This document shows positions 11,494-54,644 of a stretch of 64,000 nucleotides of DNA, one piece after another; position 1 is the first letter of the stretch; every line of letters starts with the position of its first letter. Made by a program: the position numbers and the translations under genes. The stretch covers positions 33,377 to 97,376 of the forward strand of contig JAMCWG010000006.1 in assembly GCA_023475235.1 (NCBI GenBank). The letters run 5' to 3'. The notes beneath the pieces are model-generated. The model was not told the DNA's origin, did no database searches, and saw only the letters and a list, made by a program, of their open reading frames with translations. This stretch comes from Chloroflexota bacterium. GTDB taxonomy: Bacteria; Chloroflexota; UBA6077; FW602-bin22; JAMCWG01.

Positions 11494-11502
11494 TGTCGCT
11501 TG

Positions 11503-11852
11503 GGTGGAGATGGGGGGAATTGAACCCCCGTCCAGAAGACTCCTCTAGCAACATCCTACAAGCTTAGTCGGCTCTTTGATTCCTCGCCGCTCCCGCCTCA
11601 ACCGACCGAGTCGTTCGCGGCCAGCCGATTAGTCTTAAGCTTCCCTTATCGACGTCTGAGAAGCAGCACCCCGGCATTGCGTCGCCCATTCATCCCCCAC
11701 CGGGACGAGGGTCTGATGGACGTAGTCGCCTAGATTAGGCGGCTAGAGCTGGTTCGTATGTGCCAGTTACTGGCTTGCCGCAGATTTACGAGGACACGGC
11801 ACCTCGGCTTGCAGTTACTAGCCTTCCTCCCCTGTCGAACCCTGACATCCCC
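11503..11852 (-). ncRNA. ssrA: tmRNA (SsrA)
   Basis: On the minus strand the 5' end is GGGGATGTCAGGGTTCGACAGGGGA. The 3' tRNA-like end is GGACGGGGGTTCAATTCCCCCCATCTCCACC, and GGGGATG pairs with CATCTCC including a G-U pair. An internal tag ORF at 11779-11735 reads GGC AAG CCA GTA ACT GGC ACA TAC GAA CCA GCT CTA GCC GCC TAA, giving GKPVTGTYEPALAA*. Confidence 0.9.
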
Positions 11853-16220: not shown

Positions 16221-18272
16221 ATGGGACGCCAACTGCTGCGGCTCGGACTGACCCTTCCCCTGCTGACCGGTATCGTTATGGTAATGTTTCCCCTGGTGCC
16301 GGTGTTGGAGCGCACGGATACGGTGCGCACACAGATGCGGCGCGTCGACCATAAGCGCCGGGCCGATTTCGCCGCCGGCCAGTACGAGGGCGGCCTGGTC
16401 CTGCAGGGAGACGAGGATTCCCCCGCCCTGACGCTGGCGTCGGCCGCCGAAGGCACTTACACCTCGCCGGTTATCGAGCTGCCCCTGGCCGCCAGCTCGC
16501 TGGCCGCCCACTGGGTACAGAGTCCCGCCAGCGGAGGCAAGCTCTCCTTCGCCGTTCGCAGCAGCCCCGAGGCCACGACTTGGGGGGAATGGCAGGAGCT
16601 GGAAGGCGAGGGCACCTACAACACGGCCGGCGGGCTCGAAGTGTACTACAGCACGCTGGCCGCGGCGAACGGCGCCCGCTATGCCCAGTATCGCGTTACC
16701 CTCGCCGCCGACGGCTCGGAGCCGCCGGCCCTCCACGCGGTCGGCCTGTTCGCCTTCGATTCGGCCAGTGCACCGCCGGGGTCCGAGCTGCACCTTCGGC
16801 TGGCGCCGAGAGACGAGGCGCAGGCCGCCATCAAGCCCCTGGGCATCGTGAGCCGCAAGCAGTGGGGCGCCGACGAGCGCCTTCGCTTCGAGGCGAGCGG
16901 GGGGCCGCAGCGGGGCCTGATCTGGCCCGAGGAGGTCACGAGCGTGGAGAAGATCGTCGTCCACCACACGGCCGGGCCGAATGTGTGCTCCTCGCCGGAA
17001 GCCTACTGCCAGCGACGCTCGGTGATCGCTATCAACGATATCTATTACTACCATACCGTAGTCAATGGCTGGGGTGACATCGGCTACAACAGCCTGGTGG
17101 GCTACGATGGCCGAATCTACGAGGGCCGGCACGGCCCGGAGCCCGACTACGGCAACGAGCCGCTGGACCGGGCGGTCGTGGCCGGACACGCCCTCGGCTA
17201 CAATCAGCGGACCCACGGCATCGCCCTGATGGGCAACTTCCAGCAGGATCCAGTGCCCGACCTCGAATACGATGCGCTGGTGAAAATGGTCGGTTGGATC
17301 GTCAAGTCGAAGCTGGCGGCAGGCGGCACGATCGATCCCCTCGGCTTCTCCGGCTACCGGCTGAGCAACGGACAGACGAGCCCTGCCGTGCCCAACATCG
17401 TGGGCCATCGCGACCTCAACGACACCGAATGCCCGGGCGAGTATCTCTATCAGAAGCTGGCCGATCTGCGGGAGCGGGCCAAGCGGATGACGGAATGGCC
17501 GCCGCTACAGGTGGAATTGCGGGCTCAGCCGAAGGGCGATACGGTGAGCTATCATATCTTCGTCGATAACCACGAGCCGGAGCTGGTACGGCGTATGATC
17601 ATAAAGGGGGCGGTCCCGGCGAACACCGAGTTTGTGGACTCCTGGGCCGGCTCGCCGGGCAGCAACCGCGGGGCCTTCGACGGCTCGGTGGTCACCTGGA
17701 TCGATCCCGACGCCAAGCTCACCCCCGGGCGCGACCGGCGGGAATACGTGTTCGTCGTGCGCCCGCGCCCCGGCGTGTCCCGCGCTGAGGTGAAGACCAC
17801 GGCCTGGGTCGAGTTCGCCGAGCCGGTGCGCGGCGTCGCTATGTCGGATGCGGTGAGCGCCAACCAGCCCGTCGAGGCCATCGCAGCCCCGAAGGTCGGC
17901 GGCCGGGAGAGCTGGAAGGGCGACTGGCCCGTCTCCCGCAACGTCTCCGATTACTACGGCGACGCCTACCAGGTACATCCGGCGGGAAGCGGCAGTGCCA
18001 GCTACACCTGGGAGGTGAATCTGTACGAGCCCGGCTCCTACGAGGTGTTCGCCTGGTGGACGGCGGCCCCCGATCGTGCGATGGATGCTCCGTTCGTCGT
18101 GCACGCGCGGGATGGCGCCCATCCGGTGCGGGTTAGCCAGCAGGAGCGCGGCGCGCGGTGGGTGAGCCTGGGGACTTACTCCTTCGACGCGGGCCCCGCG
18201 CGTGTGTCATTGAGCGACGATGCCAACGGCGTGGTAATCGCCGACGCCGTCCGGTTTCAAAAGAGGCCCTAG
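16221..18272 (+). CDS. N-acetylmuramoyl-L-alanine amidase (Amidase_2/PGRP type) with extra N- and C-terminal domains
   Basis: AAGGAG RBS. The amidase core includes VVHHTAGPN, GWGDIGYNSLVGYDGRIYEGR and VGHRDLNDTECPG. The C-terminal ~110 aa (YTWEVNL..GSYEVFAWW...RWVSLGTYSF) resemble a golvesin-C-like beta-sandwich. Confidence 0.8.
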   Translation: MGRQLLRLGLTLPLLTGIVMVMFPLVPVLERTDTVRTQMRRVDHKRRADFAAGQYEGGLVLQGDEDSPALTLASAAEGTYTSPVIELPLAASSLAAHWVQSPASGGKLSFAVRSSPEATTWGEWQELEGEGTYNTAGGLEVYYSTLAAANGARYAQYRVTLAADGSEPPALHAVGLFAFDSASAPPGSELHLRLAPRDEAQAAIKPLGIVSRKQWGADERLRFEASGGPQRGLIWPEEVTSVEKIVVHHTAGPNVCSSPEAYCQRRSVIAINDIYYYHTVVNGWGDIGYNSLVGYDGRIYEGRHGPEPDYGNEPLDRAVVAGHALGYNQRTHGIALMGNFQQDPVPDLEYDALVKMVGWIVKSKLAAGGTIDPLGFSGYRLSNGQTSPAVPNIVGHRDLNDTECPGEYLYQKLADLRERAKRMTEWPPLQVELRAQPKGDTVSYHIFVDNHEPELVRRMIIKGAVPANTEFVDSWAGSPGSNRGAFDGSVVTWIDPDAKLTPGRDRREYVFVVRPRPGVSRAEVKTTAWVEFAEPVRGVAMSDAVSANQPVEAIAAPKVGGRESWKGDWPVSRNVSDYYGDAYQVHPAGSGSASYTWEVNLYEPGSYEVFAWWTAAPDRAMDAPFVVHARDGAHPVRVSQQERGARWVSLGTYSFDAGPARVSLSDDANGVVIADAVRFQKRP

Positions 18273-18471: not shown

Positions 18472-18720
18472 TTGGGTCGATTCTGTAATTGATGGGCCGT
18501 GCTAGTCCTTGGTAACAACATGCACAATTACAGGCAGCAATACGTGCAATTCGACTGACAGATATGCTATATTGAAGTCTAGTATAGCACTATCGGGTTA
18601 TATAATGACCTACTTGGGTACCTACCCTACAGGGCGGCTGACCAAGTGAATGGCTGGACGGCCGATAGGCCGGTAGCGGGGGGCTGCTCGATGCGGCCGT
18701 CTCGGCAGCGGGAAGTGAAG

Positions 18721-19758
18721 ATGTCAGCGCTGGGACTGTTCTGGAATAGGGTGGAGGGCCGGCCGCGCGCCTTCTGGCGGCTCCTGGCGCAGTCCGTTAT
18801 GTTTCTGGTGGCCATTGTCGTGTTCGGAGTCCTTAGCTCCGCCTTTGCGCTGGCGTTTCTTACCCGGACTGGAGGCACTCCTCTAAGCATCGCCGACCCG
18901 GCTGCGCTAAGGGAAGTCGCTGGCAAGTCCCCCCTCTTCATGGCGCTGAACATCGTCGGCTCTCTCCTGGCGGCTGTCGTCAGTGTGGGCGTGGCTGTTC
19001 GCCTGCTGGACCGCCGGCCCTTCGCCGACCTGGGATTTCATTTTGACAGGGACTGGTGGCTGGACCTGGCGTTCGGCCTGGGTCTGGGCGCGCTGCTGAT
19101 GGTGATGATCTTCCTGGTCGAGTGGGCCCTGGGGTGGGTGAGCGTCACTAGCACCCTGGAGCCCGGCCCTTCCGGGCTGCCCTTCGGACTGGCCGTCCTG
19201 GGGGGCCTCGTCGGATTCGTGGGGGTAGGCATCTACGAGGAGCTGTTTTCCCGCGGCTATCAGTTGCGAAACCTGGCCGAGGGGCTGAACTTCGACGGCA
19301 TCGGCCCCGCGGGGGCGCTCGTGCTGGCCTGGCTGATATCCTCGGCCGTCTTCGGCCTGCTTCACGCCGGCAATCCCAATGCCACCCTCGTCAGCATACT
19401 CAATCTGCTGGTAGCTGGGCTGTTCCTGGGTCTCGGGTTTGTGCTGACCGGCGAGCTGGCGATCTCCATCGGGCTTCACATCACCTGGAACTTCTTTCAG
19501 GGATACGTGTTTGGCTTTCCGGTCAGTGGGCTCGCCCGCTCGGCCAGCTTCATTGCCATCGCCCAGGGCGGCCCCGAAGGGTGGACGGGGGGCGCCTTCG
19601 GGCCGGAAGCGGGGATCGTTGGTCTAGCCGCCACCGTTGTCGGCGGTCTGCTAACCGTTGCCTGGGTGCGCCGCCACTACGGCTGTGTCGGCTTGTATAC
19701 ATCTCTGGCCCGGTATTCGCGGGGGGCACCGCAAAAGGGCCCATCAGGTCTCGATTGA
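18721..19758 (+). CDS. CPBP family intramembrane glutamic endopeptidase (CAAX protease-like)
   Basis: Multi-TM protein with the EELFSRGY, FGLLH and HITWNF motifs. ATG 18721 is preferred over the track start at 18646. Confidence 0.8.
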   Translation: MSALGLFWNRVEGRPRAFWRLLAQSVMFLVAIVVFGVLSSAFALAFLTRTGGTPLSIADPAALREVAGKSPLFMALNIVGSLLAAVVSVGVAVRLLDRRPFADLGFHFDRDWWLDLAFGLGLGALLMVMIFLVEWALGWVSVTSTLEPGPSGLPFGLAVLGGLVGFVGVGIYEELFSRGYQLRNLAEGLNFDGIGPAGALVLAWLISSAVFGLLHAGNPNATLVSILNLLVAGLFLGLGFVLTGELAISIGLHITWNFFQGYVFGFPVSGLARSASFIAIAQGGPEGWTGGAFGPEAGIVGLAATVVGGLLTVAWVRRHYGCVGLYTSLARYSRGAPQKGPSGLD

Positions 19759-20069: not shown

Positions 20070-21086
20070 ATGGAACTATCCGATAGCAGCACAGACAACA
20101 ACGTGGACCCATCGAAGATTCTGCGGCTCGACTCCGTCTGGTACAAGGAGCCTGACCCTCAGTTCGAGCAGCTTACCGATAACATAATCTTCCGCGTCAG
20201 GGAGCTGCAGCGGAAGAACAGCGAATTGGTCGGGCTTGGCAAGAGAAACGCAGAACTGCTGCTAGCGCTTCAGCAGTCCCTCGAAAGAGTCGCCGAGGCC
20301 CAGCGCACGACCCTCGCCCATCGTGATATGGCGCAGATTGTCATTATGACGGTAGGGCAGATGCTGGAGAGGGCAGACGACGCAATCAGCCTGATGCAGG
20401 TCGCGATGAAGCACGAGTACGCCCACGGATACGGCGAAGTCATCCGCCGGACGACGGCGCTGCAGAAGGAGATCGATTCGCTGCTCGAAGGCGAGGGAGA
20501 CGAGGAGCTCGTCCAGGACGAAGGGGAGGTCCAGCGCAGGACTGCCGAGTTCTTCCGACAAGCCGGCAATTCTATTCTGTCCATCGCCGGCCTGCTGCAG
20601 GAGCTCCTCGCGGAGCGGGAGCACAGTCAGCGGCAGCAGCCGGTTGGGGAGAAGGTGGACGAGGCCCGCCGGACCGCTGCGCCGAGATCAGATGTTCCCA
20701 CCCCTGCTGACCAGCCCGCCGACGATGATCGGGTTACAGGCGCAGTCCGTCACAAGGGCGCGTCGGCTGGCGCTGCGTCCGTGCCGGAGCCTGCGGGCGA
20801 TGCCCAGGATATCGAGATCGTGGCATCTCCGCTGGGCAGCCTCGCCGCCCTGACGGCATTCTGCAAAGCGGTGCGGGAAGTTGCCGGCGTCATCGAGATG
20901 AAAACGGAAGACTTCGACAGGGATACGCTCCGGCTCAAAGTCCGGTACTCCGGCAGGGGCCCGCTGGCGAGCCTGTTGATGAAGCTGCCTGGGTTCAGCG
21001 TACGCCTCGTGCAATTGGGCGTGGGCCGGGTCGTGATCGGGATCGGGGCCAGGCGGCCGGTGGCAGCGGGTTGGAAGGCAAGCTGA
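20070..21086 (+). CDS. hypothetical protein: coiled-coil N-terminal region, disordered linker, ~85-aa C-terminal domain shared with the next gene
   Basis: 338 aa. The N-terminal half is heptad-like and helical, followed by a Pro/Ala/Asp linker. The C-terminal domain (about 20802-21060) aligns with the C-terminus of ORF 21103-22221. Confidence 0.55.
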   Translation: MELSDSSTDNNVDPSKILRLDSVWYKEPDPQFEQLTDNIIFRVRELQRKNSELVGLGKRNAELLLALQQSLERVAEAQRTTLAHRDMAQIVIMTVGQMLERADDAISLMQVAMKHEYAHGYGEVIRRTTALQKEIDSLLEGEGDEELVQDEGEVQRRTAEFFRQAGNSILSIAGLLQELLAEREHSQRQQPVGEKVDEARRTAAPRSDVPTPADQPADDDRVTGAVRHKGASAGAASVPEPAGDAQDIEIVASPLGSLAALTAFCKAVREVAGVIEMKTEDFDRDTLRLKVRYSGRGPLASLLMKLPGFSVRLVQLGVGRVVIGIGARRPVAAGWKAS

Positions 21087-21102: not shown

Positions 21103-22221
21103 TTGGAACGAATGGTCAAGGTGGTGATGGAAGACAAGTCAGCCTTGGACAGGGTGAGGGTCCTCATCGTCGGCGATGATGATGGAGCATGCCAATTGCT
21201 CCATCTCGTCCTGCACAAGGATGCCAGGATAGCGGTGGTCGGCCAGGCCTCGGGCACCAGAGATGTAACGCAACTCACCTCGGCCGTCTCGCCAGACGTC
21301 GCTCTGGTAGACCTGGATGCCACCGATCAGACGACGCTGGCGGCGCTCAAGTCGGCCAAGCAGCAGATGGGGTCGGTTATGTTGGTGGGGCTGGCCGGCA
21401 ATCTCAATTCTGCCAGGACATCGCCCGGTGAGTTTGATGCTATGCTGGACAAGCGAGAGCCTCTGGATAAGCTGCTGACGAGTCTCAGCGATATCGGCGC
21501 CAGGCACCGGCACGAGCCGGTGACGCCGGAGCGCCGGGCGGACCCTGCGCCCGAAGCGCCAGAGAACAATGACGGAGGACCCGTTCCCCTGGCGCCGCGT
21601 CCCGTCGCCGTGCATACGACGGCTACGCCGGAGGGGGAAAAAGCTGCGGACACGAAGGTCACAGGCGAGCCCCCGGCAGTCCGGGCCGGCGCGGTCATCA
21701 GGCCGGGCGATGGGACGGCCGCTTCACATACGGAAGGTCGTACAGAAGGTGGCCGCGCTGAACGCATCGAAGGGGTGACGTCCGCCCTGTTTACCGGCCC
21801 CGCCGCTCCGCAATCGAGCCAACCTCAGCCGGGGGCAGACCCGCACCTGACCGTCGCTGCCAGTCCGGCAGGGTCGGCCGAGCCGGCGCCGGTGGTTGCG
21901 GCCAATTCTGCCGCCGTGAACGGCCAGATAACGCCGATATTGGTGGAGCTCAGCGTCTCCCAGTTCGGGAGCTTCCGCACGCTGTCCGCCTTTCACGCCG
22001 CGCTCGAAGGGCTGAGCGATATCCTTATGGCCAAGATACGGCGGTTCCACCGGGGGACGCTGTACGAGGTCGTGCGATACGCCGGGACGGCCCCGCTGGA
22101 AGAGCGCCTGAAGGAGCTGACGCAGTACCAGCCGACGCTCGTCGCCAGCCGGCCGGGCAGCATTGAGCTGCGAATCAAGTCCAGCGACGACCGCACCCTA
22201 GAAGCGTCTACGCCTGATTGA
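21103..22221 (+). CDS. receiver (REC)-like domain protein with long disordered linker and the same ~85-aa C-terminal domain
   Basis: The N-terminus VRVLIVGDDDGACQ...PDVALVDLDATD has the acidic pocket and phospho-acceptor Asp positions of CheY-like receivers. The conserved T/S position is Gly (LVGLAG). No DNA-binding output domain is present. Confidence 0.6.
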   Translation: MERMVKVVMEDKSALDRVRVLIVGDDDGACQLLHLVLHKDARIAVVGQASGTRDVTQLTSAVSPDVALVDLDATDQTTLAALKSAKQQMGSVMLVGLAGNLNSARTSPGEFDAMLDKREPLDKLLTSLSDIGARHRHEPVTPERRADPAPEAPENNDGGPVPLAPRPVAVHTTATPEGEKAADTKVTGEPPAVRAGAVIRPGDGTAASHTEGRTEGGRAERIEGVTSALFTGPAAPQSSQPQPGADPHLTVAASPAGSAEPAPVVAANSAAVNGQITPILVELSVSQFGSFRTLSAFHAALEGLSDILMAKIRRFHRGTLYEVVRYAGTAPLEERLKELTQYQPTLVASRPGSIELRIKSSDDRTLEASTPD

Positions 22222-22674: not shown

Positions 22675-22926
22675 GTGAATAGTGGGGGTGTATGGTCCGT
22701 GGACGATGGGTTGGGCATTGTCAGTATCTTTCTTGTTCTTGCACGCGTCTTCGCCGTCATCGTCGTCTGGCTGCTTATGTTCATCGGTGTTTTCACAGGA
22801 TATCTGACCATACCGCTGGTGATGCTGGCCGTTTTTGTGGCCGTGCTGGCGTTGCCAGATATCCTCAAGCATTACCGAAAGCTCATCCCCAGGCGCTGGA
22901 GGACGCCGCCACGCAATGATCTCTAG
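22675..22926 (+). CDS. small 2-TM membrane protein (putative first gene of the EPS operon)
   Basis: 83 aa with two clear hydrophobic helices. Its end overlaps the ATG at 22916 of the synthase. No family recognised. Confidence 0.4.
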   Translation: MNSGGVWSVDDGLGIVSIFLVLARVFAVIVVWLLMFIGVFTGYLTIPLVMLAVFVAVLALPDILKHYRKLIPRRWRTPPRNDL

Positions 22927-25900
22927 CACTCCTACATTTGACCACATGGGAGCCGGAGCAGAGGAACCGGCTCAGCGACCCTACACGCCGATCGTCTACT
23001 GGCCGATCAACTACCGCCTGGCACGCCAGATACCCGAATCCTTCGCCCGAGCCCGGCGGTTGGTCCCGCTGGCGCGCCACGGGGATATGTTGAGTGTAGC
23101 CATGGCCGATCCTGACGATGCCGAGGCGCTGGCCGAGCTCCGCCGGATGATGCCACACGAAATCAGGCCCCTCCTGAGCAGCGAAGGCGAGATAGGGGTG
23201 CTGCTGGACCGCGTCTTTCGCCCTCAGGAGCCAGCCAACCTGTTGCCGGCGCTATCCCGTGTCCTGCTCGATACGGGTTTCTTGACCAGCCATCAGATCG
23301 CCACGCTGGAGAAGGAGAACGAGTCGCGCTGGCCGCCCAAGTCGGGCGATCAGTTGGGGATCGGTGGCCTTACCGAAGAGGACTATGCCGAAGCGCTCGC
23401 ATTTACCTTCAGTGTGCCCCACGTGCGCCTCGATAGCTATCGCATTAGCCCTGCATTCGCCGAGCTCTTGCCTCGTGAATTCGCCCAGCGGTGGCAGTTG
23501 GTCCCTATGTTTGCCATCGATGGGAAGCTGGTGGTGGCCAGCAAAGACCTGCTTCCCAACGATGTGCTGGCTACCGTCGCCAGGCTGACTGGCTTCGAGC
23601 CTCTCCCAGTGATCGGTACAGCATCGGCCGTGGCGCAGGCCATCGCGCGGGCTTATGGTCAGGTGCGCGGCAATTCCAAAGGAACCGAGAAGCCGTCCAA
23701 GCCGCTGTGGCAGCAGCTACTCGACAGCGGCTTCATCGAGGGTGCCCAAGTGGCCAGTGCGGAGACTATCGCGCGGCAGACGGGCGAATCGGTCGAGGGT
23801 GTGTTGTTACGGCTGGGCCAGGTCGGGGAAACCGAGATCCTCAAGGCCCGCGCCGAGCTGCATAACTCCCAACTGGTCCGGCTGGCCGATGTGCACATCG
23901 ATCGTTCCGTTGCAGCGATCGTCCCGGAACCCGTCGCCCGTCGCTACCGCTGTTTGGCGCTGCATCGAGCTGGGCCGAGGGTGCTCGTCGCCATGGCCGA
24001 TCTGGCTGACAGCAACACGAGGAATCTGCTGGAGGTCTTGTTCGCCCAACCCGTCCACGCTGTATTGTGTAGCGAGGCCGACCTGCAGTCGGCCTTCGAG
24101 ATGGTATACGGCGTATCCGACGGCGCACGGGGGTCGGTGAGGCCGATGCTGGGGGAATACCTGGTGCAGAGCGGCCGGCTGACCCCGAGTCAGGTAGCTA
24201 TGGGCTTGCAGCGCCAGCACCAAACGGGCCGGGTCTTTGGGAAATGCCTCATCGACCTTGGACTGCTGAGCGAGGCGGAGCTGGCCGAGGTGCAGGGGCT
24301 CCAGCTCCGGCTGCCGTGGGTGGACGTATCACGATATGTAGTGCCGGCCGAGACCTCCTTCCTCCTCCCGCAGGAGATCGCCCGCCAGTACGGCATTGCA
24401 CCGCTCTATCGAGAGGGTCGCCTGCTGACCGTGGCCACCAGCGATCCCCAGAACGAAGATACCCTGCAAGTGATTAGAGATCAAACGGGGCTGAATCTAC
24501 GGGTCGTGCTGGCCGGAGAGACCGAGATACAGGAGGCCATCGACCGCATCTATGGAACAGACCTCTCAGCCATCAGCCAGGAATTGCTCGAGCTTGGGGA
24601 ACAACTGACAAGGGCCGGGCTCCTGCGCCGAGATCAGATGGTCCAGGTCTGGCAACGGCAGCTCCAGGCGGAGATGCCCTTCGATACGGCGGTGACAACG
24701 CTCGGCTTCCTCTCCGAGGAACAACTGGCGAGCGCCATCGCTGTCTACTTGAAGGTACCGCAGGCGGACCTCCGCTACCGGAGGATCCCGGTGGAAATCA
24801 TCGACGGCCTGGGGGCGCGGCGCCAGGTCCTGCGATGGACGGAGCCGCTCGAAGTAGAGACTGCTCGCCTTCTGCCCGAACACGTTGCCCGGCGCTGCAG
24901 CGCCATCCCCGTGAGCCGCGCCGGCGACTCGATCACAGTGGCTTTCGTCAACCCCGTAGAGAGCGACACTGTTGCCACGGTACAACAGCAGCTCAGATGC
25001 CCAGTGTCGATAGTCATCGCCACCCGCGAGCAGCTAGCGGAGGCCATCCGGCGCGTCTACAATTGCCGGCTGCTGGGAGACATCCTCCTCGAAGCGGACG
25101 TCATCAACCGCCGGCAACTGGAGGAAGGGATGAAGCTGCACCGGCGCAGCGGCGTCCGTCTGGGGAAAGCGCTGATCAGCCTGGGATATCTCACGCAGGA
25201 CCAGTTGGTGGGCTGCCTTTCCGAGCAGCATAACTTCCCGTACTTCGACCTGCAGGGGGCGGACATCCCAGAAGACATCGCTCGCAGCGTCCCGGAGACC
25301 GTAGCGCGGAGCAACGAATTGATTCCCCTGTCACGCCGGGGCGATACCCTGACAGTGGCGATGGTCAATCCTTTGGATACGGTGGCCATCGAACAGATCG
25401 AGACGCTGACGGGCTGCCGGGTCGAGCCGGTGATAGCTACCGAGGAAGACATAGAAGATGCGCTGGAGCGGGTGTACAAGGGCGACTACCTGTGGCAGAG
25501 CGCCAATGATCTGGTGTTCCGGTATCCCGAAGAATCGGCCAGCAGAGTCCTCACCTCGCGTCAGAAGGTGCTTCTCCTGGGTTTCCTGGCCGTGTCGATT
25601 TTGCTGATGGCCCTCAAGCCGGTGTCGTATCTCACCGTGTTGATTTCCTTGAGCACACTGTTCTATGTCAGCTTCTCGAGCTACAAGTTCTATCTGATCT
25701 ACAAAGCCCTGTCGCACAGCCTGGAGATTCCCCTCCTGCCGGAGGAGATCGCCACCCTCGACGACCGTGACCTGCCGGTCTATACGGTGCTGGTGCCTGT
25801 GTATCGCGAGGCGGAGGTACTGCCCACCTTAATCCAGGCTATCGATAACATGGACTATCCCAAGACCAAGCTGGACGTGCAGATACTGCTCGAAGAGGAC

Positions 25901-26929
25901 GATAAGGAGACCATCGCCGCGGTCCGGCGACACCAGCTTCCGGCACACATCAAGCCGGTCGTCGTCCCCAACTCTCTGCCAAAGGGAAAGCCCAAGGCGT
26001 GTAACTACGGCCTGATCCATGCCCAGGGCGAGTACCTGGTTATCTACGACGCTGAGGACATACCAGAGCGAGACCAATTGAAGAAAGTGGTGGTGGCGTT
26101 CCGCAAAGCCCGCAGCAATGTTGAATGCATTCAAGCCAAGCTGAATTACTACAATCGAGACCAGAATCTGCTGACCCGCTGGTTCACCACCGAGTACTCG
26201 ATGTGGTTCGACCTGTTTATCCCCGGGCTGGACGCCAGCAACGCCCCGATTCCGCTGGGAGGCACATCCAACCATTTCCGCACCGCGCGCCTGCGGGAGC
26301 TGGGGGCATGGGACCCGTACAATGTCACCGAGGACGCCGACCTCGGCGTGCGCCTTTTCAAGCACGGCTGGAAGACGGCCGTCATCGACTCGACTACCTA
26401 CGAGGAGGCCAATAGCCAGTTGTACAATTGGCTCCGGCAGCGGTCCCGGTGGGTCAAAGGTTACATCCACACGTACCTGGTGCATATGCGGCACCCCTGG
26501 AAGCTGATGCGGGATATCGGCGTGTACCAGTTCTTCAGCTTCAACATGGTAGTTGGGGGCACCTTCTTCGGCTTCCTGCTGAACCCCGTCTACTGGCTGC
26601 TGACGGCCACGTGGTACATCACCCGGCTCAGCTTGATCGAGCAGATATTCCCGGCCCCGATCTATTACCTCGGCGCGCTCGGGCTTTATCTGGGCAATTT
26701 TGCTTTTATGTACACGAATGTGGCCGGTTGTATGCGCCGCCAGTACTACGATATGGTAAAGTACGCACTGTTGAGCCCGCTCTACTGGGCGCTGATGAGC
26801 ATGGGGGCCTGGAAGGGGTTCATCCAGCTCTTCTACCGTCCTTCCTATTGGGAAAAGACGGTCCATGGCCTGTACCGTGGTGAAGTGAAGGTAGGAGTCC
26901 AGGCAAGCGAAACGACGGAGACTCATTAA
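22916..26929 (+). CDS. processive family-2 glycosyltransferase (BcsA/NodC-like synthase) with six N-terminal T2SSE_N/MshEN-type modules
   Basis: About 880 aa contain six repeats of the GspE-N fold signature (each ending ...A..R.Y/F). Five are preceded by paired 24-aa MshEN-like helices, e.g. MLGEYLVQSGRLTPSQVAMGLQRQ-HQTGR-VFGKCLIDLGLLSEAELAEVQGLQ and RLGKALISLGYLTQDQLVGCLSEQ. These are followed by 2 TM helices, a GT2 core (DAED 26048-26059; QRSRW 26438-26452) and about 4 further TM helices. There is no PilZ domain. Confidence 0.85.
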   Translation: MISSTPTFDHMGAGAEEPAQRPYTPIVYWPINYRLARQIPESFARARRLVPLARHGDMLSVAMADPDDAEALAELRRMMPHEIRPLLSSEGEIGVLLDRVFRPQEPANLLPALSRVLLDTGFLTSHQIATLEKENESRWPPKSGDQLGIGGLTEEDYAEALAFTFSVPHVRLDSYRISPAFAELLPREFAQRWQLVPMFAIDGKLVVASKDLLPNDVLATVARLTGFEPLPVIGTASAVAQAIARAYGQVRGNSKGTEKPSKPLWQQLLDSGFIEGAQVASAETIARQTGESVEGVLLRLGQVGETEILKARAELHNSQLVRLADVHIDRSVAAIVPEPVARRYRCLALHRAGPRVLVAMADLADSNTRNLLEVLFAQPVHAVLCSEADLQSAFEMVYGVSDGARGSVRPMLGEYLVQSGRLTPSQVAMGLQRQHQTGRVFGKCLIDLGLLSEAELAEVQGLQLRLPWVDVSRYVVPAETSFLLPQEIARQYGIAPLYREGRLLTVATSDPQNEDTLQVIRDQTGLNLRVVLAGETEIQEAIDRIYGTDLSAISQELLELGEQLTRAGLLRRDQMVQVWQRQLQAEMPFDTAVTTLGFLSEEQLASAIAVYLKVPQADLRYRRIPVEIIDGLGARRQVLRWTEPLEVETARLLPEHVARRCSAIPVSRAGDSITVAFVNPVESDTVATVQQQLRCPVSIVIATREQLAEAIRRVYNCRLLGDILLEADVINRRQLEEGMKLHRRSGVRLGKALISLGYLTQDQLVGCLSEQHNFPYFDLQGADIPEDIARSVPETVARSNELIPLSRRGDTLTVAMVNPLDTVAIEQIETLTGCRVEPVIATEEDIEDALERVYKGDYLWQSANDLVFRYPEESASRVLTSRQKVLLLGFLAVSILLMALKPVSYLTVLISLSTLFYVSFSSYKFYLIYKALSHSLEIPLLPEEIATLDDRDLPVYTVLVPVYREAEVLPTLIQAIDNMDYPKTKLDVQILLEEDDKETIAAVRRHQLPAHIKPVVVPNSLPKGKPKACNYGLIHAQGEYLVIYDAEDIPERDQLKKVVVAFRKARSNVECIQAKLNYYNRDQNLLTRWFTTEYSMWFDLFIPGLDASNAPIPLGGTSNHFRTARLRELGAWDPYNVTEDADLGVRLFKHGWKTAVIDSTTYEEANSQLYNWLRQRSRWVKGYIHTYLVHMRHPWKLMRDIGVYQFFSFNMVVGGTFFGFLLNPVYWLLTATWYITRLSLIEQIFPAPIYYLGALGLYLGNFAFMYTNVAGCMRRQYYDMVKYALLSPLYWALMSMGAWKGFIQLFYRPSYWEKTVHGLYRGEVKVGVQASETTETH

Positions 26930-26938
26930 GGCAGGCAA

Positions 26939-28642
26939 TTGCGCACGCTGGAAATAGCTGACAGGCCAGTGGCTCTATCTCAGGAAGCACCACGGGGAGC
27001 GGACGCCGAGCCGTCGTTGCGCGCTCAGGTGCTGCTGTTCGCGGTGACATTCCTCGTGCTGGCCGCAGTCGCCGCTGGACTGACCTTCCACTACCGCCTC
27101 TACGACGGCGATGCCCTGTCGCGGACCTATAACGCGGTGGCGGTGCTATACGACGCGCACCCGCGCCTGGCCAATCTCGGCTTCGCCTGGGCGCCGCTGC
27201 CCGGGCTCCTGCAGGTGCCGCTGGTGCTGTTCCGTCCGCTGGCGACCGCGGGCTTTGCCGGCACGCTGGTGACGGCTTTTGCCAGCGCCTTGGGCCTGGT
27301 GCTGATGGATCGAATTCTGGCCTGGTACGTGCCATCGAGTCTGGCGCGATGGCTGCTTCTACTCGCCTATCAGACCAATGTTATGATCCTGTACTACTCG
27401 ATCAACGGAATGAGCGAGGCTATTCTGATTACGCTGGCCCTGCTCTGCTGGTACGAGTTTCAACGACTGTACGAGGATTTGCCGCTGCGGAAGGGTGTCT
27501 CGCACGTGACCGTTATGGGTGCGGCCGCTGGGCTGACCTTTCTCACCCGCTTCGATGGGGCCTCCTTTGGATCGGCAATGCTTGTGGCACTGCTGTTAGT
27601 CCTGAAGCTCGGGAGGCGAGGCCAAACGCATCCAGGGGGAGCCCCGACCGAGCGACCAGCGCCGAGCGAGAGCGTCAGGGCAGTCGCGGGTGGCTATTCT
27701 ATCGCCTACGTGGCGCCCTTCGCCTATACGATCATTCTGTGGCTATTCTTCAACTGGCAAATCATGGGGAATCCGTTCGAGTTCATGTTTGGCAAGGGCT
27801 CGAACGTCCAGTGGCTGTCGGCGAGCATGCAATCCAGTGACCTGCTCTACGGGATGAAGGGCAACATCGTTGCCTCGGCCGCCTACGCAGCCAAAGTCTC
27901 AGGCCTACTGTTCCCCAGCTTCTATCTGGCACTGGCCCTTTTGGCCCTCGTGGCCCTTAGAGAAGCCGATGCGATGGCCCTCTGTATGGGTCTGGTGGCG
28001 GCGTCTTTCCCGGCATTCCAGGCTGGAATGCATTTCCTCGGCCAGAGCGCCGGCTGGGCGCGCTTCTATATGTATGTCATTCCATTCTCGATAATCGCCC
28101 TGGCTTATGCTGTGCACAGAATAACAGGCAATTATCGTGCTGGTGCTCGCTTGTGGCAGGCTACCCTGGTCATCGTGGTGGCAGCCTCATCGGTGTTCAC
28201 TTTTCTTGGCGTGACCCGGTCTGACATACCGAAGTCCAACGAGCTAGCTTTCGCCAGGATCATTGCGTCGAACGAGATAGCAGATAACCTAGCCTTCGAG
28301 AGGCGCGTTGCGGAAGCCCTGACACAGCTCCCGCAAGGAAAGACAATTCTGGCGGATGAGCTCCAGGCCGACCACATCATCCTATTTACGCTGCAGTTCG
28401 AGCGCTTCGTGACCAGCCGAGACCCTAATTTCTCTGGCATTGCCGCCGATCCCGTTGGCAAAACGGACTACATACTGGTGCCCCGCACCGACGAGGCGTT
28501 GAACGAGATCGTTAGACAGCAGCCAAACATATTCACCGACCCGGCTCCTTTTCTCCGGCTTGAGCAGGAGTTCGATGGTAGGCCATCCAACTACGAGTGG
28601 AGGCTGTACAGGGTTGTCGATCCCAAGGATACTTCCAGCTAA
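26939..28642 (+). CDS. polytopic GT-C-like (ArnT/PMT-like) membrane protein, paralog 1
   Basis: 567 aa with about 11-13 TM helices. The first loop carries an Asp motif (YDGDALSR). The soluble C-terminal ~130 aa end in ...DYILVPRTDE...EWRLYRVV. It is a paralog of the next ORF. Confidence 0.6.
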   Translation: MRTLEIADRPVALSQEAPRGADAEPSLRAQVLLFAVTFLVLAAVAAGLTFHYRLYDGDALSRTYNAVAVLYDAHPRLANLGFAWAPLPGLLQVPLVLFRPLATAGFAGTLVTAFASALGLVLMDRILAWYVPSSLARWLLLLAYQTNVMILYYSINGMSEAILITLALLCWYEFQRLYEDLPLRKGVSHVTVMGAAAGLTFLTRFDGASFGSAMLVALLLVLKLGRRGQTHPGGAPTERPAPSESVRAVAGGYSIAYVAPFAYTIILWLFFNWQIMGNPFEFMFGKGSNVQWLSASMQSSDLLYGMKGNIVASAAYAAKVSGLLFPSFYLALALLALVALREADAMALCMGLVAASFPAFQAGMHFLGQSAGWARFYMYVIPFSIIALAYAVHRITGNYRAGARLWQATLVIVVAASSVFTFLGVTRSDIPKSNELAFARIIASNEIADNLAFERRVAEALTQLPQGKTILADELQADHIILFTLQFERFVTSRDPNFSGIAADPVGKTDYILVPRTDEALNEIVRQQPNIFTDPAPFLRLEQEFDGRPSNYEWRLYRVVDPKDTSS

Positions 28643-28672
28643 GGTGAGGGCTTGCTTGAACGAGGAGAGCAC

Positions 28673-30373
28673 ATGGCGTCGAGCCTGACCTTACCGGCGG
28701 GGCCCGTTGTCGCTTCGACACCGAAGGCATCGGTGGGAGCTGTCTCGCGACAGGAGCCCTGGATCATCTTCGGGGCCAGCTTCCTGGTGTACGCCTTCAT
28801 CGGCTGGGTCGCTGCATATGTCATCCAGACCTACAACTGGGACGGCGTCACGCGCATCGCGCAAGCCCACGGCGTCTTCTTCAGCAGACAGCCTCATCTT
28901 TCCGCCATAGGATTTGTCTGGATGCCGCTGCCGGTGCTGACCGACCTTCCGCTGGTCTTGTTGCTCAAGCCACTCGGGCTGGTGTTGCTGGCCGGGCCGG
29001 TAATGAGTGCCTTGTATGGTGCTCTTGCCTTGACCCAGCTTTCCGAGCTGCTGCGGCGCTTAGAGGTGCCCGCGTTCTGGCGGTGGACCTGGGTAGCTGG
29101 CTTTGCAGCGCATCCACTCATCGTTCAGAACGCGGCTATGGGCCTCTCGGAAGCACCGTTTCTGGCATTTCTGTTGATGTCGATCAACGGTTTCGCCAGA
29201 TGGGACCGAGACCGCGAGCCTGGCGGACTGGTGTGGGCAGCAGTCGGTTCGGCGCTGGCCCTGTACTGCCGTTACGAAGCGCTGGCTTTGGCCGGGGCAA
29301 TGACGCTGGCCATCGTCTGGCGGCTGAGGCTCGATTCGGTCAGCATCTGGCGTAGGACGACAGGCGGAAGCGTTCTGGCGTTCATTACCCCTTCCATTTG
29401 GGCTTTGATCCTGTGGATTCTCGTGAACTGGGACATAATGCATAACCCGATATACTTTCTGGTAGGCCCTGGCTCAACTTCGACCACTCCCGACACAGCG
29501 CAAGCGGTAGGACCGAGCCACCCGTTTGCCTTCGCACAGGGCTCTGTGGAGGGCTCGCTTCGCCTCTTGCTCACGCAGATTGTCGACCTCGCACCGTTGG
29601 TGTTGCCAGCTAGCGCGCTCCTCGTCATCTGCGGGATATGGCGACGTCGCCTGGCCGATTTTGCATTTCTGGCGCTGGGCTGGTCGATTCTGGGCTTCGT
29701 TTTCCTCATCGCCCTCCGTGGACTCCTGCCGCCGTTTACGCGCTATTTTTTCTGGGTGGTACCGGCGGGCATAGTCATCGCGGGAGCAGCCTATCGAGCG
29801 ATCGCGCCCGGCTGGCCTCGGCATTGTGTGGCTTTTTGTACAGCGCTACTGCTGATCTTGGCATCCGTGTCGCTGTCGCTACAATCGTGGGCCCGGCTGG
29901 CAGACCCATTTCCACAACGTGTGGCAGGCGCTTTGCTCCTGCCACGGGAGGCGCTCTATCCGGAGCAGCTACGGGGCATGCTGGACGAGTTCAAAGAAGT
30001 GGCCAAGTACCTGAACAACGAGACGCCGGAGACACTGATCTTGTCGGACGCGGCCATTGCCTCTCCACTGGTATTTTTCTTGGATCGGCCAAACGAAATG
30101 GTGCTGACCACCGACACGGATTTCCTGCCCATTCTGCGCGATCCTGTCGGCCAGGTGGACCAGATCCTGGTGCCGTACCCGTCTTTCGATGCGAAGGGCC
30201 GCTCGGATATCCTGAAGCAGTATCCCGATTTGTACGATGGCGGCAAGCCCTGGGCGCAGCTTGTCCACGAGTTTCCCGGCCCCAGCGCCTGGCGCCTGTA
30301 CCAGGTGCAGAGGCCGGATACCGACGACTACGATGATCTCGACGATGTGGAGAATTATGCCGGCCGGCCCTAA
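28673..30373 (+). CDS. polytopic GT-C-like (ArnT/PMT-like) membrane protein, paralog 2
   Basis: GAGGAGAG lies upstream of ATG 28673. The layout matches the previous ORF (first-loop YNWDGVTR; C-terminal ...DQILVPYPSFD...AWRLYQV). The tail is acidic. Confidence 0.6.
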   Translation: MASSLTLPAGPVVASTPKASVGAVSRQEPWIIFGASFLVYAFIGWVAAYVIQTYNWDGVTRIAQAHGVFFSRQPHLSAIGFVWMPLPVLTDLPLVLLLKPLGLVLLAGPVMSALYGALALTQLSELLRRLEVPAFWRWTWVAGFAAHPLIVQNAAMGLSEAPFLAFLLMSINGFARWDRDREPGGLVWAAVGSALALYCRYEALALAGAMTLAIVWRLRLDSVSIWRRTTGGSVLAFITPSIWALILWILVNWDIMHNPIYFLVGPGSTSTTPDTAQAVGPSHPFAFAQGSVEGSLRLLLTQIVDLAPLVLPASALLVICGIWRRRLADFAFLALGWSILGFVFLIALRGLLPPFTRYFFWVVPAGIVIAGAAYRAIAPGWPRHCVAFCTALLLILASVSLSLQSWARLADPFPQRVAGALLLPREALYPEQLRGMLDEFKEVAKYLNNETPETLILSDAAIASPLVFFLDRPNEMVLTTDTDFLPILRDPVGQVDQILVPYPSFDAKGRSDILKQYPDLYDGGKPWAQLVHEFPGPSAWRLYQVQRPDTDDYDDLDDVENYAGRP

Positions 30374-30496
30374 GGGTACCGATCGAATACGATCCACACT
30401 AGCATGGCACGAACGGGAGGTGAACCCTTGGTACGCAGGTGCTTGAGGTGGCCGATGATACTGGTCGAATCGCACTGTGCGGCGCTCAACAGGATA

Positions 30497-32629
30497 ATGC
30501 TGGCGCTGCTGACAATAATCGGCTTGTTGCTCAATGTGTCCGCTGCCCTGGCTGATCGAGGGGCTCCCGAGCCCGACATCAGTCTGAAGCAGCTCAAGAT
30601 GGGGAACATCACCGTTCAGGGATATCAGCCTACTATGAGCCTCTGGTTCCCGGGATACGGCGACTACCAGGTGACCGATGGCAACTACCTGCATCTGGAG
30701 TACAGCCGCTCGGAGCTTATCAACCCCAAGTTCTCGTCGGTCACTGTGTATCTGAACGGTTTGCCTCTGGCCAGCACGCTGCTGACGGAGCAGACCGCCA
30801 AGCGGACTACCTGGGAAATCGCCCTGCCCAGGGACAAGCTGAACCGTGACCTCAACCTCGTCGAGCTTAAGTACAATATGTTCATCTATGAAGGGAACTG
30901 CGGTGCGGAGGGGGACGGGCCCAAGTATAGCACCGTCTACGAGGAATCCTTTATCCATTATCAGTACGCATCGCCGCTCAAGTTCATTCCCTTCCGCCAG
31001 CCTGATCTGGGCCGCTTCCCGGAGCCGTTCATACGGCCGACTCTCCCGGATGGAGAGGTCGCCATCATCCTGCCAGACAACCCCTCGTCCGGCGATTACA
31101 GCGCGGCGGCCAGCGTTGCGGCGCGGTTCGGTCAGGTTGCCGGCGGCAAGCCCTTCACCGCGACCTTACACTTTGCCGGCGAGGCGCCAGGGCTGCGCAG
31201 CGCTGGCGATCTGGTGGTCGTCGGCACGCCGGACGCCAATCCCTTCCTCGAAGAGCTAACGCCGTCGCTGCCCCTCAAGTACAAGCGCCAGGACGGCCAG
31301 GCCGTGTACATCGACCCCGCCGGGCAGCCTATCGCCCCGGACACGGGTGTGATTCAGGTGATGAAGTCCCCCTGGGACGAGCGATTCGCTGTCCTGGTGG
31401 TCAGCGGGGGAAACGAGGAGGGCTTGAGCCGGGCGATGCGCGCCCTCAGCAGTCGCTTGGGAGTGAAGGCGATGCAGGGTCCGTACGCGACGATAACCAG
31501 GGCCTCCGAGGAGCTGACGAAGGCCGCGAAGCCCGAGGGCGGCGACGGGGGCGCCATCGAGATCAGCTTGCAGCAGCTCGGGCTCAGCGATTCGGTCTTC
31601 GACGGTGCCGGCTCGCACGCGACCGGATTCTCTTTCGATGTGCCTCCCCTCGACCGCACGCAGGAGGCCTACTTCGAGCTGGATATGAGCTATTCTCCGA
31701 TACTCAGCCCCTGGGTATCCTCAGTCAGATTTTCGGTAAATGGGGTCCCGGTGTGGACCCGGCTGCTTGATGAAGAACATAGCAATCGGTCAAAGCATCG
31801 CATTCTGGTGCCTACGACAGCTTTGCGGCCTGGTGTCAACTCAGCCAAGGTGCAGTTCGACCTTTACACCCGCTACGTTCCGGAATGCTCGCCCCTGGCG
31901 CTCGAGCGGGCCTGGGCCGTGCTCCACGCCGATTCGGCGTTCAGCATACCCGTCGGCACGGCACGGCCGCCACTGGATTTGCTAAACTTACCGTACCCGT
32001 TTGTGCGTGACGGCACGCCTTCGGGCACATATCTGGTGTTGCCCGACGACCGTTCGCTGTTGCGGGACAGCCTGCAGGTGGCGGTGGCCCTGGGCCGGCA
32101 GTCGCTCGGCGCCAGCACCGAGCTGAAGGCTGGCGTAGCTTCCCAGATAAGCGACGAAGCCAAGCGCAGCTACGACCTGATCGGGTACGGCCTGCCCGAG
32201 AGCAACACGCTCATCGCGGAGGCCCAGTCAAAGCTGCCGTTGTCGCAGGAGGGGCGCACAGAGCGGCTGCTCCAGAAGCCCCAGAGCGTGCTGGTAGGGG
32301 TACAGGACCAGGCCGAGCTGGGCTTCATCCAGCTAGTCCCGTCGCCCTGGAATGACGATAAGGGGCTGCTGGTGGTCTCCGGCACGTCGCCGGATCTGGC
32401 GCGGCAAGCGGGTCAGGCGCTGCAGAGCGCGCTTCCCTCAGGCAACGTGGCCGTTGTCGGCGGCGCTCCCAGCAGGGTGGCTGGAATGAAGATTAGTGGT
32501 GAGGCCGAACGCCCTGCTGCCCGTGTCCCGACATACCGCAGGGTGTACTCGGCGGCGGGTATTCCGGTAGCCATCGTTGTCCTGGGCCTGGTAGGGCTGA
32601 TGCTATACCGTGCCGAACGGCAGGACTGA
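30497..32629 (+). CDS. BcsB-like periplasmic synthase subunit with C-terminal TM anchor
   Basis: Signal peptide from ATG 30497. An internal two-fold repeat has the BcsB-type pattern (ISLKQLKMGN...LHLEYSRSELINPKFSSVTVYLNGLPLAS and IEISLQQLGLSD...FELDMSYSPILSPWVSSVRFSVNGVPVWT). The C-terminal helix is AAGIPVAIVVLGLVGLMLY. Confidence 0.65.
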   Translation: MLALLTIIGLLLNVSAALADRGAPEPDISLKQLKMGNITVQGYQPTMSLWFPGYGDYQVTDGNYLHLEYSRSELINPKFSSVTVYLNGLPLASTLLTEQTAKRTTWEIALPRDKLNRDLNLVELKYNMFIYEGNCGAEGDGPKYSTVYEESFIHYQYASPLKFIPFRQPDLGRFPEPFIRPTLPDGEVAIILPDNPSSGDYSAAASVAARFGQVAGGKPFTATLHFAGEAPGLRSAGDLVVVGTPDANPFLEELTPSLPLKYKRQDGQAVYIDPAGQPIAPDTGVIQVMKSPWDERFAVLVVSGGNEEGLSRAMRALSSRLGVKAMQGPYATITRASEELTKAAKPEGGDGGAIEISLQQLGLSDSVFDGAGSHATGFSFDVPPLDRTQEAYFELDMSYSPILSPWVSSVRFSVNGVPVWTRLLDEEHSNRSKHRILVPTTALRPGVNSAKVQFDLYTRYVPECSPLALERAWAVLHADSAFSIPVGTARPPLDLLNLPYPFVRDGTPSGTYLVLPDDRSLLRDSLQVAVALGRQSLGASTELKAGVASQISDEAKRSYDLIGYGLPESNTLIAEAQSKLPLSQEGRTERLLQKPQSVLVGVQDQAELGFIQLVPSPWNDDKGLLVVSGTSPDLARQAGQALQSALPSGNVAVVGGAPSRVAGMKISGEAERPAARVPTYRRVYSAAGIPVAIVVLGLVGLMLYRAERQD

Positions 32630-32659: not shown

Positions 32660-33589
32660 GTGGCGGGAGGAAAGACCTTGGACGTGAGACAGAGTACTAC
32701 CACGAATCTGCTGATTGTCCTGCTGATACTGTGCGGCTACATAACGGCCGCCGTTCTGGCGGCGGTTGATTCTGGCGACACGGCGCTGCTGATAGGAGCG
32801 CTGGCCGGGGTTATCGTGGCGGTCTCTTTCGCCTGGCCGTTCACCAGGGCGTGGAGAATAGGTACCCTCGCCGCTATCGTGTACTACATTGGGCTGCAGG
32901 TCTACCGGATGGCCGGCACCGGCAGCATAATGGTGGGTCTGGACAGGGCACGACCGGTGCTCGGCTACGCTCCATCGGCCGTGAACTACGCACTGCCCGT
33001 GGCTGCTGGCGTGCTGTGCCTCGGAGTGGCCGGCCTGTTAGGAAATGGCGTCGCCCGCCGGCTCTTCAAAGCCGAAGCGCAACTGGAGCGTGATGCTACG
33101 GTGATCCGCGAGCTGACCATCCACGACGGCGACACCGGGGCGCTCAAGATGGTCTATGCGGACACGCTGCTCACTGACGAAATTGAGCGGTCGCGCCGTT
33201 ACAAGCACACGCTTTCGCTCGTGTTGCTGGGTCCGGATGACTGGCAGGCGATAGTCCGCGAGCGGGGGGATAATGAAGCAACGGAAGCGCTCAAGCTGGC
33301 CGGGCAGGTGATCAAAGAGAGCCTGCGGAACGTGGACATTGTGTCTTACCGCGAGCAAGCCCGCTTCGCCGTGATCCTGCCCGAGACAGCGGTGGCGGGA
33401 GCGTGCGTCGCCGCCGAGCGGCTGTGTCACTCCCTGGCGTCGAGGACTTCGATACTGTTCCGGGCCGGGGTGGCGGAGTTTCCGAGCGATGCGGTCAGCA
33501 AGGCCGAGCTGATAAACGAGGCCGATGCGGCGCTGAAATTCGCCCGCAGTGCCAGCCTCAACGTGGCCAGCCGCGTCTTGCTGACGTAG
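32660..33589 (+). CDS. 4-TM membrane protein with degenerate GGDEF domain retaining the RxxD I-site
   Basis: GGDEF-fold landmarks are present (DGDTGAL..., RSRRYKHTLSLVLLGPDDW, ...ADAALKFARSAS). The GG(D/E)EF position reads EQARF (33353-33367). RNVD (33326-33337) sits exactly 5 residues upstream, as in canonical I-sites. The start could instead be TTG 32678. Confidence 0.7.
   Translation: MAGGKTLDVRQSTTTNLLIVLLILCGYITAAVLAAVDSGDTALLIGALAGVIVAVSFAWPFTRAWRIGTLAAIVYYIGLQVYRMAGTGSIMVGLDRARPVLGYAPSAVNYALPVAAGVLCLGVAGLLGNGVARRLFKAEAQLERDATVIRELTIHDGDTGALKMVYADTLLTDEIERSRRYKHTLSLVLLGPDDWQAIVRERGDNEATEALKLAGQVIKESLRNVDIVSYREQARFAVILPETAVAGACVAAERLCHSLASRTSILFRAGVAEFPSDAVSKAELINEADAALKFARSASLNVASRVLLT

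Positions 33590-54570: not shown

Positions 54571-54644
<74 letters not shown>

Follow-up and report, generated by a model that had tools for sequence, protein, structure and literature searches.

In MshEN domains, cyclic dimeric guanosine monophosphate (c-di-GMP) is held by an N-terminal four-helix bundle consisting of two 24-residue motifs that lie 5 residues apart (Wang et al. 2016). The published architectures place one to four MshEN domains on T2SSE ATPases, or a single MshEN before or after a GT2 glycosyltransferase (Wang 2016 Supplementary Table 4); an earlier sequence-only reading of the DNA studied here likewise named single MshEN-GT2 fusions as a known class. This DNA, hereafter called the window, is a stretch of 64,000 nucleotides (nt) from a Chloroflexota bacterium, and it encodes on its forward strand (22916..26929, +) a 1337-amino-acid (aa) synthase of layout (MshEN)6-GT2, in which six tandem MshEN units, designated U1 to U6, precede transmembrane (TM) helices and a GT2 domain. 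We consider it reasonably probable that one conserved sensor (U6), and possibly two, gates this PilZ-less synthase, and that the distal units would be repurposed as scaffold modules.

A membrane GT2 synthase that carries MshEN instead of PilZ is known from Escherichia coli in the form of NfrB, an exopolysaccharide synthase activated by c-di-GMP, whose MshEN binds the dinucleotide with a Kd of ~1 μM and is required for glycosyltransferase function, and in which the glycine equivalent to G11 of VcMshE is critical. However, the single MshEN of NfrB is C-terminal, whereas the six units of the window synthase are N-terminal, giving a reversed domain order, and the partners differ as well, being NfrA/YbcH for NfrB and BcsB, GT-C enzymes, and a degenerate GGDEF protein for the window synthase. 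Proteins with one or two MshEN units ahead of the enzyme (MshEN-Glyco_trans_2_3, e.g., Rhodobacter sphaeroides Rsph17029_0522), for which the JGI names are "XagB" or cellulose/PNAG-synthase-like (PNAG, poly-N-acetylglucosamine), belong to the same GT2 clade and share with the window synthase the order of MshEN followed by TM/GT2, a catalytic part that is 59-82% identical, and a conserved motif in the proximal unit. They differ in that their distal units lack the helical subdomain, while U2-U5 of the window synthase add four units of full length.

An array in which some copies bind and others do not has its closest precedent in Thermus thermophilus PilF, where the members of a tandem GSPII/MshEN array are functionally specialized and only some bind c-di-GMP (GSPII-A not at all, GSPII-B at 6 nM, and GSPII-C at ~500 nM). 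In contrast to the window synthase, with its GT2 output and six copies, PilF and the (MshEN)2-4-T2SSE proteins have a secretion/pilus ATPase as output and at most four copies. The BcsA-BcsB complex is the best solved-structure match by sequence and fold, shares the TED and QxxRW motifs, and has a homologue of its BcsB subunit in the window operon, but BcsA contains a PilZ domain for which the window synthase has no match, and the identity is ~20%.

Layout of the Synthase Gene

The mechanical open reading frame (ORF) that contains the synthase (22835..26929, +) opens at a TTG at 22835, but, on the basis of the length of NCBI protein P0001 and of the N-termini of orthologs, the true start is likely the ATG at 22916, where the sequence-only reading had also placed it. 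P0001 (1337 aa), which derives from a metagenome-assembled genome (MAG) and is named only "glycosyltransferase", is identical to the window synthase, and Met 22916 coincides with the alignment start of five full-length orthologs.

A Pfam scan of the ORF revealed six PF05157 MshEN stretches with a total of 340.6 bits. When the array (residues 1-867 of the protein) was cut into six pieces and each was scanned alone, U1 (22916-23248, +), U2 (23249-23701, +), U3 (23702-24145, +), U4 (24146-24589, +), U5 (24590-25069, +), and U6 (25070-25516, +) scored 63.0, 60.4, 53.6, 74.3, 53.8, and 85.5 bits, respectively, against a gathering cut-off of 23.1 bits. Because each piece passes the gathering score by itself, the count of six is solid, and the six tandem modules read from the letters alone, as well as their fusion to a glycosyltransferase (GT2 domains at ORF residues 983-1261; PF13641, 1.7e-26, and PF13632, 2.5e-23), are confirmed by profile. 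The A(I/L)xR(V/I/A)(Y/F) helix that had been said to close every unit is exact in U2 (AIARAY), U4 (AIDRIY), U5 (AIRRVY), and U6 (ALERVY) but only approximate in U1 (LLDRVF) and U3 (AFEMVY).

No DNA repeat longer than 28 nt is found in the synthase gene, and those present are imperfect; the repetition of the units is therefore ancient and visible at the protein level only. Recent tandem duplication was ruled out by this lack of long repeats together with the positional orthology of U5 and U6 across the family alignment, which comprises 29 full-length members that are 33-63% identical to the window synthase.

Catalytic Part

The array continues into a linker helix, TM helices, and a processive GT2 domain (25517..26926, +) containing DAED, TED, and QRSRW motifs. 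The best sequence match among solved structures is BcsA 5ej1 (3.4e-13), with TED and QxxRW aligned, and DAED, VTEDAD, and QRSRW are invariant in 72 relatives. An AlphaFold2 model of U6 with the TM/GT2 part (72 sequences) reached a mean predicted local distance difference test score (pLDDT) of 90.7 and a predicted template modeling score (pTM) of 0.90, and its best Foldseek matches are BcsA (4p00, 5ej1), hyaluronan synthases, and chitin synthases (Chs1), with E of 4e-13 to 5e-8 and TMq of 0.36-0.49. The modeled U6 superimposes on c-di-GMP-bound MshEN 5htl with a TM-score of 0.82 (target-normalized), a root-mean-square deviation of 2.4 Å, and 36% identity.

PilZ has no match in the synthase at E ≤ 1 (Pfam). 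PF00437 (T2SSE ATPase) likewise has no match in the synthase, and the matches to TIGR02538 span model positions 2-146 only. The cellulose synthase equivalogs TIGR03030 and NF008558 are missed (81.7 bits versus 699.1 and 51.8 versus 992, respectively), with CelA matched at E 3.1e-23; the NfrB equivalog NF008411 scores 195 bits versus a cut-off of 1170, its matches being confined to the MshEN part of the model, and the PgaC equivalog score is far below cut-off.

The c-di-GMP Motif in the Individual Units

PF05157 mostly spans the C-terminal α/β subdomain. The helical motif pair was scored with NF053729 (NCBIfam), a 53-residue model of the c-di-GMP motif with a curated cut-off of 38 bits, and by counting mismatches against the relaxed motif given by Wang et al. 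2016; the residue register was set by phmmer alignment of U6 to VcMshE 5htl, and 22 consensus positions were tabulated. U6 (60.8 bits) and U4 (47.2 bits) lie above the NF053729 cut-off, U5 (26.5 bits) and U3 (18.3 bits) lie below it, and the scan of U1 and U2 gave no match. Relaxed-motif mismatches in halves 1 and 2 number 3 + 0 in U6, 2 + 2 in U4, 2 + 2 in U5, 3 + 5 in U3, and 3 + 4 in U2, so that alignment of all ten 24-mers, a check proposed with the sequence-only reading, leaves motif 2 of U6 as the only one free of mismatches. The claim that each of U2-U6 is preceded by paired 24-residue consensus helices is thus confirmed only in part, with U6 and U4 passing the curated model and U5, U3, and U2 failing it, and the remark that motif quality differs between units agrees with both the scores and the mismatch counts.

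U6, the membrane-proximal MshEN and predicted c-di-GMP sensor (motif pair, 25070-25228), matches VcMshEN 5htl at 1.9e-21 by phmmer and keeps both third-position glycines, G11 and G40 (G721 and G750 of the window synthase). In VcMshE, the backbone amides of these glycines hydrogen-bond the guanines, and the G11L and G40I replacements abolish binding. Judging from its sequence, U6 is likely to bind c-di-GMP. U4, the candidate second site (motif pair, 24146-24304), also retains both third-position glycines and matches 18 of the 22 consensus positions, and we put forward binding by U4 more tentatively, as something that may or may not hold. U5 bears P-(F/L)-D at R38-L39-G40 and an insertion of ~20 aa, and its binding of c-di-GMP appears improbable. 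U3 is degenerate, with W at G11 and E at G40 in all six close orthologs. U2 is full-length with a degenerate helical subdomain, in which G11 is replaced by S and a linker, variable among orthologs, stands in place of the first helix of motif 2. U1 consists of the α/β MshEN_C/T2SSE_N1-type subdomain only, without the helical c-di-GMP subdomain: its PF05157 match lies at profile positions 10-88, it has a weak match to GSPE_N1E, and it covers only HMM (hidden Markov model) positions 60-139 of the unit profile. For each of U3, U2, and U1, the predicted chance of c-di-GMP binding is close to negligible.

Conservation across the Six-Copy Family

Across the 29 members, U6 has G11, L14, and Q61 in 29/29 and R38, G40, and L25 in 28/29, and U2-U4 are variable at the MshEN signature positions. 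Both half-motifs show no more than two relaxed mismatches in 21 of the 29 for U6, in eight for U4, in five for U5, and in none for U3 and U2. U5 has a signature of its own, with D at G40 in 28/29, P at R38 in 23/29, and in 28/29 an insertion of ~20 aa, (I/V)D-x-(L/V)G...DP(V/I)D, between its two subdomains; P-(F/L)-D and the insertion together suggest that a new site has been conserved rather than that the unit has decayed.

By best match, U5 pairs with U5 in 27 of 28 comparisons and U6 with U6 in all 28, and U1-U4 are blurred. Identity drops with distance from the enzyme: the mean is 59-78% for the TM+GT2 part, 42-67% for the N-subdomain and 34-60% for the C-subdomain of U6, 21-57% for U5, and ~20% for U1-U4 among distant members. 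The N-subdomain of U6, at 67% among orthologs, is the most conserved part outside the enzyme. In the one-, two-, and three-copy relatives, the GT2-proximal unit retains the motif, with a median of 18-20 positions out of 21, and in 48 of 50 two-copy relatives the distal unit is without a helical subdomain, like U1 of the window synthase. From this distribution, the ancestor was likely a C-subdomain-only unit followed by a full MshEN and GT2, to which four more full-length units would have been added long ago, their ligand signature since having been lost.

Copy Number and Distribution

A unit profile (30 units) was searched against 1.84 billion representatives, matching 45,770 proteins at E ≤ 1e-3, and the best 150 matches were examined; multi-copy proteins score highest and therefore lead the match list. 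These best 150 include 19 representatives with six units and a GT2 domain (1028-1345 aa, some truncated) and ~8 further full-length proteins that were counted as four or five units only through thresholds, and no GT2 protein with more than six MshEN units occurs among the best 150 of the 45,770 matches. No credible copy number above six occurs in the best 150 matches; six exceeds the published maximum of four and is essentially specific to this GT2 family. P0181, listed with eight stretches, was rejected as an eight-copy protein: the unit HMM gives six units at residues 12-883 of its 914 aa, without GT2, and split matches on an N-terminal fragment are the most likely explanation. The ends of the MshEN-only proteins in the best 150 coincide with unit boundaries, and these proteins, too, are probably N-terminal fragments.

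The six-unit GT2 layout amounts to at least ~30 clusters at 50% identity, from metagenomes, and this number is a lower bound because weaker six-copy proteins may rank below the best 150. Near-uniqueness, as suggested by a full-length search that returned seven proteins only, was ruled out by these ~30 clusters. The impression that a six-fold array is unusual is therefore right insofar as six exceeds the published four and tops the range, but the layout is that of a conserved family and not singular. A survey of copy number had been proposed along with that impression, and its outcome is a recurrent layout without characterization in the literature searched, where no description of any multi-MshEN glycosyltransferase was found.

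Two GT2 proteins in the best 150 have four units, P0154 (1003 aa) and P0162 (953 aa); both are of the same GT2 clade and are possible intermediates between the one- to two-copy and the six-copy forms. Other multi-copy layouts in the best 150 are (MshEN)4-T2SSE (P0134, P0138) and (MshEN)4-REC. The latter is seen in P0141 (765 aa), with four MshEN followed by a receiver domain (REC), where the published table has MshEN-REC only.

With the GT2/TM part alone as query, at least 8000 candidates were found at E ≤ 1e-20; some sources give members the names XagB or cellulose/PNAG-synthase-like, and those with a label belong to Chloroflexota, Solirubrobacterales, and others. The 120 closest GT2 relatives comprise 18 with no unit (mostly fragments), 50 with one, 50 with two, and two with three, the pooled three-unit count rising to three once P0007 from the full-length search is added. 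A genome scan seeded with the six-ortholog U5+U6 alignment, which reaches close relatives only (a 16-sequence U5 alignment was too divergent as a seed), gave close matches in species-representative genomes in two Chloroflexota MAGs, L001 and L002, only. The MAG that contains P0001 and P0278 is labeled "Bacteroidetes bacterium" by NCBI, yet the closest labeled GT2 relatives are Chloroflexota, and the bin label may be wrong.

Genomic Context

Downstream of the synthase lie memC (26939..28642, +), a candidate GT-C-fold membrane glycosyltransferase by predicted fold, and its paralogue memD (28652..30373, +), which is 25% identical to it; both encode multi-pass proteins of ~570 aa with no Pfam or NCBIfam family, and both match one and the same gene in L001 and L002. 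The memC model, which is of moderate confidence (pLDDT 78, pTM 0.79), matches ArnT, STT3, DPY19, ALG9/12, and Pmt4 with E of 1e-5 to 3e-4, and one memC/memD relative is named ArnT-like by JGI. The next gene encodes a BcsB-like subunit (30404..32629, +; PF03170, 3.2e-48), with syntenic counterparts in L001 (52% identity) and L004/L005. After it comes a gene for a membrane-anchored degenerate GGDEF protein (32660..33589, +; PF00990, 6.6e-13), with N-terminal membrane helices, EQARF at the A-site, and the I-site RNVD kept. Its orthologs are at L001:16758-17642 and L004:21541-22452; the A-sites across the three proteins read EQARF, QESRF, and NESRF, and an RxxD five residues upstream of the A-site is invariant in all three. 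With its degenerate A-site and conserved RxxD, the protein is not a plausible cyclase, and the idea that it serves the synthase as a diguanylate cyclase, the part played for NfrB by DgcJ, was rejected.

PelD is a membrane-anchored degenerate GGDEF receptor for c-di-GMP, with a retained RxxD I-site, in the Pel exopolysaccharide operon. The window GGDEF protein resembles it, by description only, in the membrane anchor, the degenerate A-site, the RxxD, and the location in an exopolysaccharide operon, but no GAF domain was detected in it, unlike PelD. These sequence features suggest an I-site receptor for c-di-GMP of the PelD kind.

The order of GT2, one to three GT-C-like genes, BcsB, and GGDEF is kept in L001 and on the contig of P0004, and in the syntenic loci the one to three GT-C-like genes always lie between the GT2 synthase and BcsB. 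GT-C enzymes are unusual partners for a processive GT2 synthase, and the conserved operon points to an undescribed exopolysaccharide system.

Upstream of the synthase, a 372-aa protein (21103..22221, +) has a weakly REC-like N-terminus (17.9 bits, below cut-off) and a C-terminal domain of ~95 aa (21928-22218) that it shares with its paralogous upstream neighbor (20070-21086, +; 30% identity over 118 aa); neither protein has a Pfam family above cut-off. The last ~95 aa of the 372-aa protein are found again immediately upstream of the synthase in L001 (53% identity) and L004 (42% identity). The protein is a candidate partner of the MshEN array. A c-di-GMP riboswitch in the upstream gap of 614-695 nt was ruled out, with no Rfam match to one in the window at gathering thresholds. 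At these thresholds, the window has two Rfam matches only, a full-length tmRNA (11502-11852, -; 174.6 bits) and a tRNA (54571-54644, +). Farther upstream, a 683-aa protein (16221-18272, +) has an N-acetylmuramoyl-L-alanine amidase domain (Amidase_2) and, at its C-terminus, a Golvesin_C domain, and its gene is followed by one for a CAAX-protease-like membrane protein (18646-19758).

Proposed Function and Alternatives

In the model that we favor, the protein would be an inner-membrane processive synthase of the BcsA/hyaluronan-synthase-like GT2 type that is controlled from its cytoplasmic N-terminus by MshEN in place of PilZ. U6, immediately before the first TM helices, would be the conserved c-di-GMP sensor, and c-di-GMP at U6 would most likely activate GT2 allosterically, as for NfrB; U4 is a plausible second site in the window subclade, possibly with another affinity. 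U1, U2, U3, and U5 would be ancient MshEN duplicates that kept the fold and lost the c-di-GMP signature, serving most likely as a spacer or scaffold arm for oligomerization or for docking of partners encoded nearby. The synthase would work with the BcsB-like subunit, modification of the polymer outside the membrane may fall to the GT-C-fold enzymes, and the degenerate GGDEF protein, its I-site intact, may be a second c-di-GMP receptor. A spacer or scaffold role is favored because the units keep the fold without the ligand signature and carry a T2SSE_N1-type subdomain; XpsE and EpsE use domains of this type (GSPII/N1E) to bind XpsL and EpsL, and deletion of the PilF GSPII domains alters complex stability. 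The sequence-only reading had offered both a graded or cooperative switch with several c-di-GMP sites and the conversion of some units into interaction scaffolds. The latter fits better, as just two of the six units pass the curated motif model and only U6 keeps the motif across the 29 members; the former is supported for U6 and U4 at most.

Several points weigh against the model. Half 1 of U6 has three relaxed-motif mismatches, R9 to L, G18 to D, and Q32 to H, of which D at G18 occurs in all six and H at Q32 in five of the six orthologs of the subclade. The first-position arginine is dispensable, since PilF GSPII-B, which has K and L at this position, binds with an affinity of 6 nM, but small deviations can abolish binding, as GSPII-A shows with an almost perfect motif I and no c-di-GMP binding, and the change from G18 to D might weaken it. 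These same two substitutions, the precedent of GSPII-A, the lack of any unit perfect in both relaxed half-motifs, and the GGDEF protein of the operon, whose A-site is degenerate and whose RxxD is invariant, would all suit an array that no longer binds c-di-GMP in the window subclade, where the six units would be structural or interaction modules and control, if any, would run via the GGDEF I-site receptor. We regard this as unlikely in view of the NF053729 score of U6, its perfect motif 2, the strong purifying selection on the equivalents of G11, L14, L25, L29, G40, and Q61, and the match of the modeled U6 fold to ligand-bound MshEN. In the opposite direction, binding is seen for PilF GSPII-C even though E occupies the aligned glycine position in one of its three motif copies, and an acidic residue at G40 was for this reason dropped as disqualifying by itself. 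Since GSPII-C has three motif copies, its E neither confirms nor excludes binding, and our certainty about U5 and U3 is lowered accordingly; the nonbinding calls for these two units, made from sequence, could be wrong. The scaffold role, finally, is proposed from analogy and from the pattern of conservation, and the partner is a candidate only.

A multi-site, graded or cooperative c-di-GMP switch would account for the five units in which a recognizable helical N-subdomain aligns from end to end with MshEN/PilB models, and for the low mismatch count of U5 (2 + 2); it could also appeal to PilF, where tandem GSPII domains bind at very different affinities (6 nM versus ~500 nM) and noncanonical first residues are tolerated. 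It is nevertheless quite unlikely, as the curated motif cut-off is passed by U6 and U4 only, the third-position glycines are W/E in U3, D in U5, and S or absent in U2, the motifs of U2-U5 are not conserved across the family, and extensive cooperativity was not found in PilF itself. Very unlikely, in our estimate, is that some degenerate units, chiefly U5, gained a site for another ligand or partner, such that the array integrates c-di-GMP with another input. The D, P, and insertion of U5 (28/29, 23/29, and 28/29) form a family-wide signature rather than random decay, U5 is positionally orthologous in 27/28, and the MshEN domain can, according to Wang 2016, also bind cyclic GMP-AMP (cGAMP), but the conserved U5 motif may just as well make a structural contact to U6 or the membrane domain. 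A more far-reaching proposal, which we likewise hold to be quite improbable, is that the six-unit arm acts as a multivalent platform for signaling and assembly, instead of as a single sensor with inert spacers, in which P-F-D and the insertion of U5 would form a new ligand or partner site and the distal T2SSE_N1-type subdomains would recruit the conserved upstream protein or link synthases to one another.

Significance

Nothing in previous knowledge is overturned, because each component belongs to a known kind; the (MshEN)6-GT2 synthases are a recurrent family built from known parts and undescribed in the literature searched. MshEN ranks among the principal receptor domains for c-di-GMP, and the majority of its proteins other than the secretion/pilus ATPases are uncharacterized. 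The array described here is the largest MshEN tandem expansion found, six versus the published four, and it is located on a BcsA-like synthase in which MshEN replaces PilZ; the hosts are apparently Chloroflexota, where c-di-GMP effectors are poorly known. If the platform proposal were true, polymer synthesis would be spatially organized and tuned stepwise, a logic undescribed for any exopolysaccharide synthase. With its conserved proximal sensor and fast-evolving distal copies, the family would constitute a natural experiment in the repurposing of a duplicated ligand-binding domain, with a parallel in PilF.

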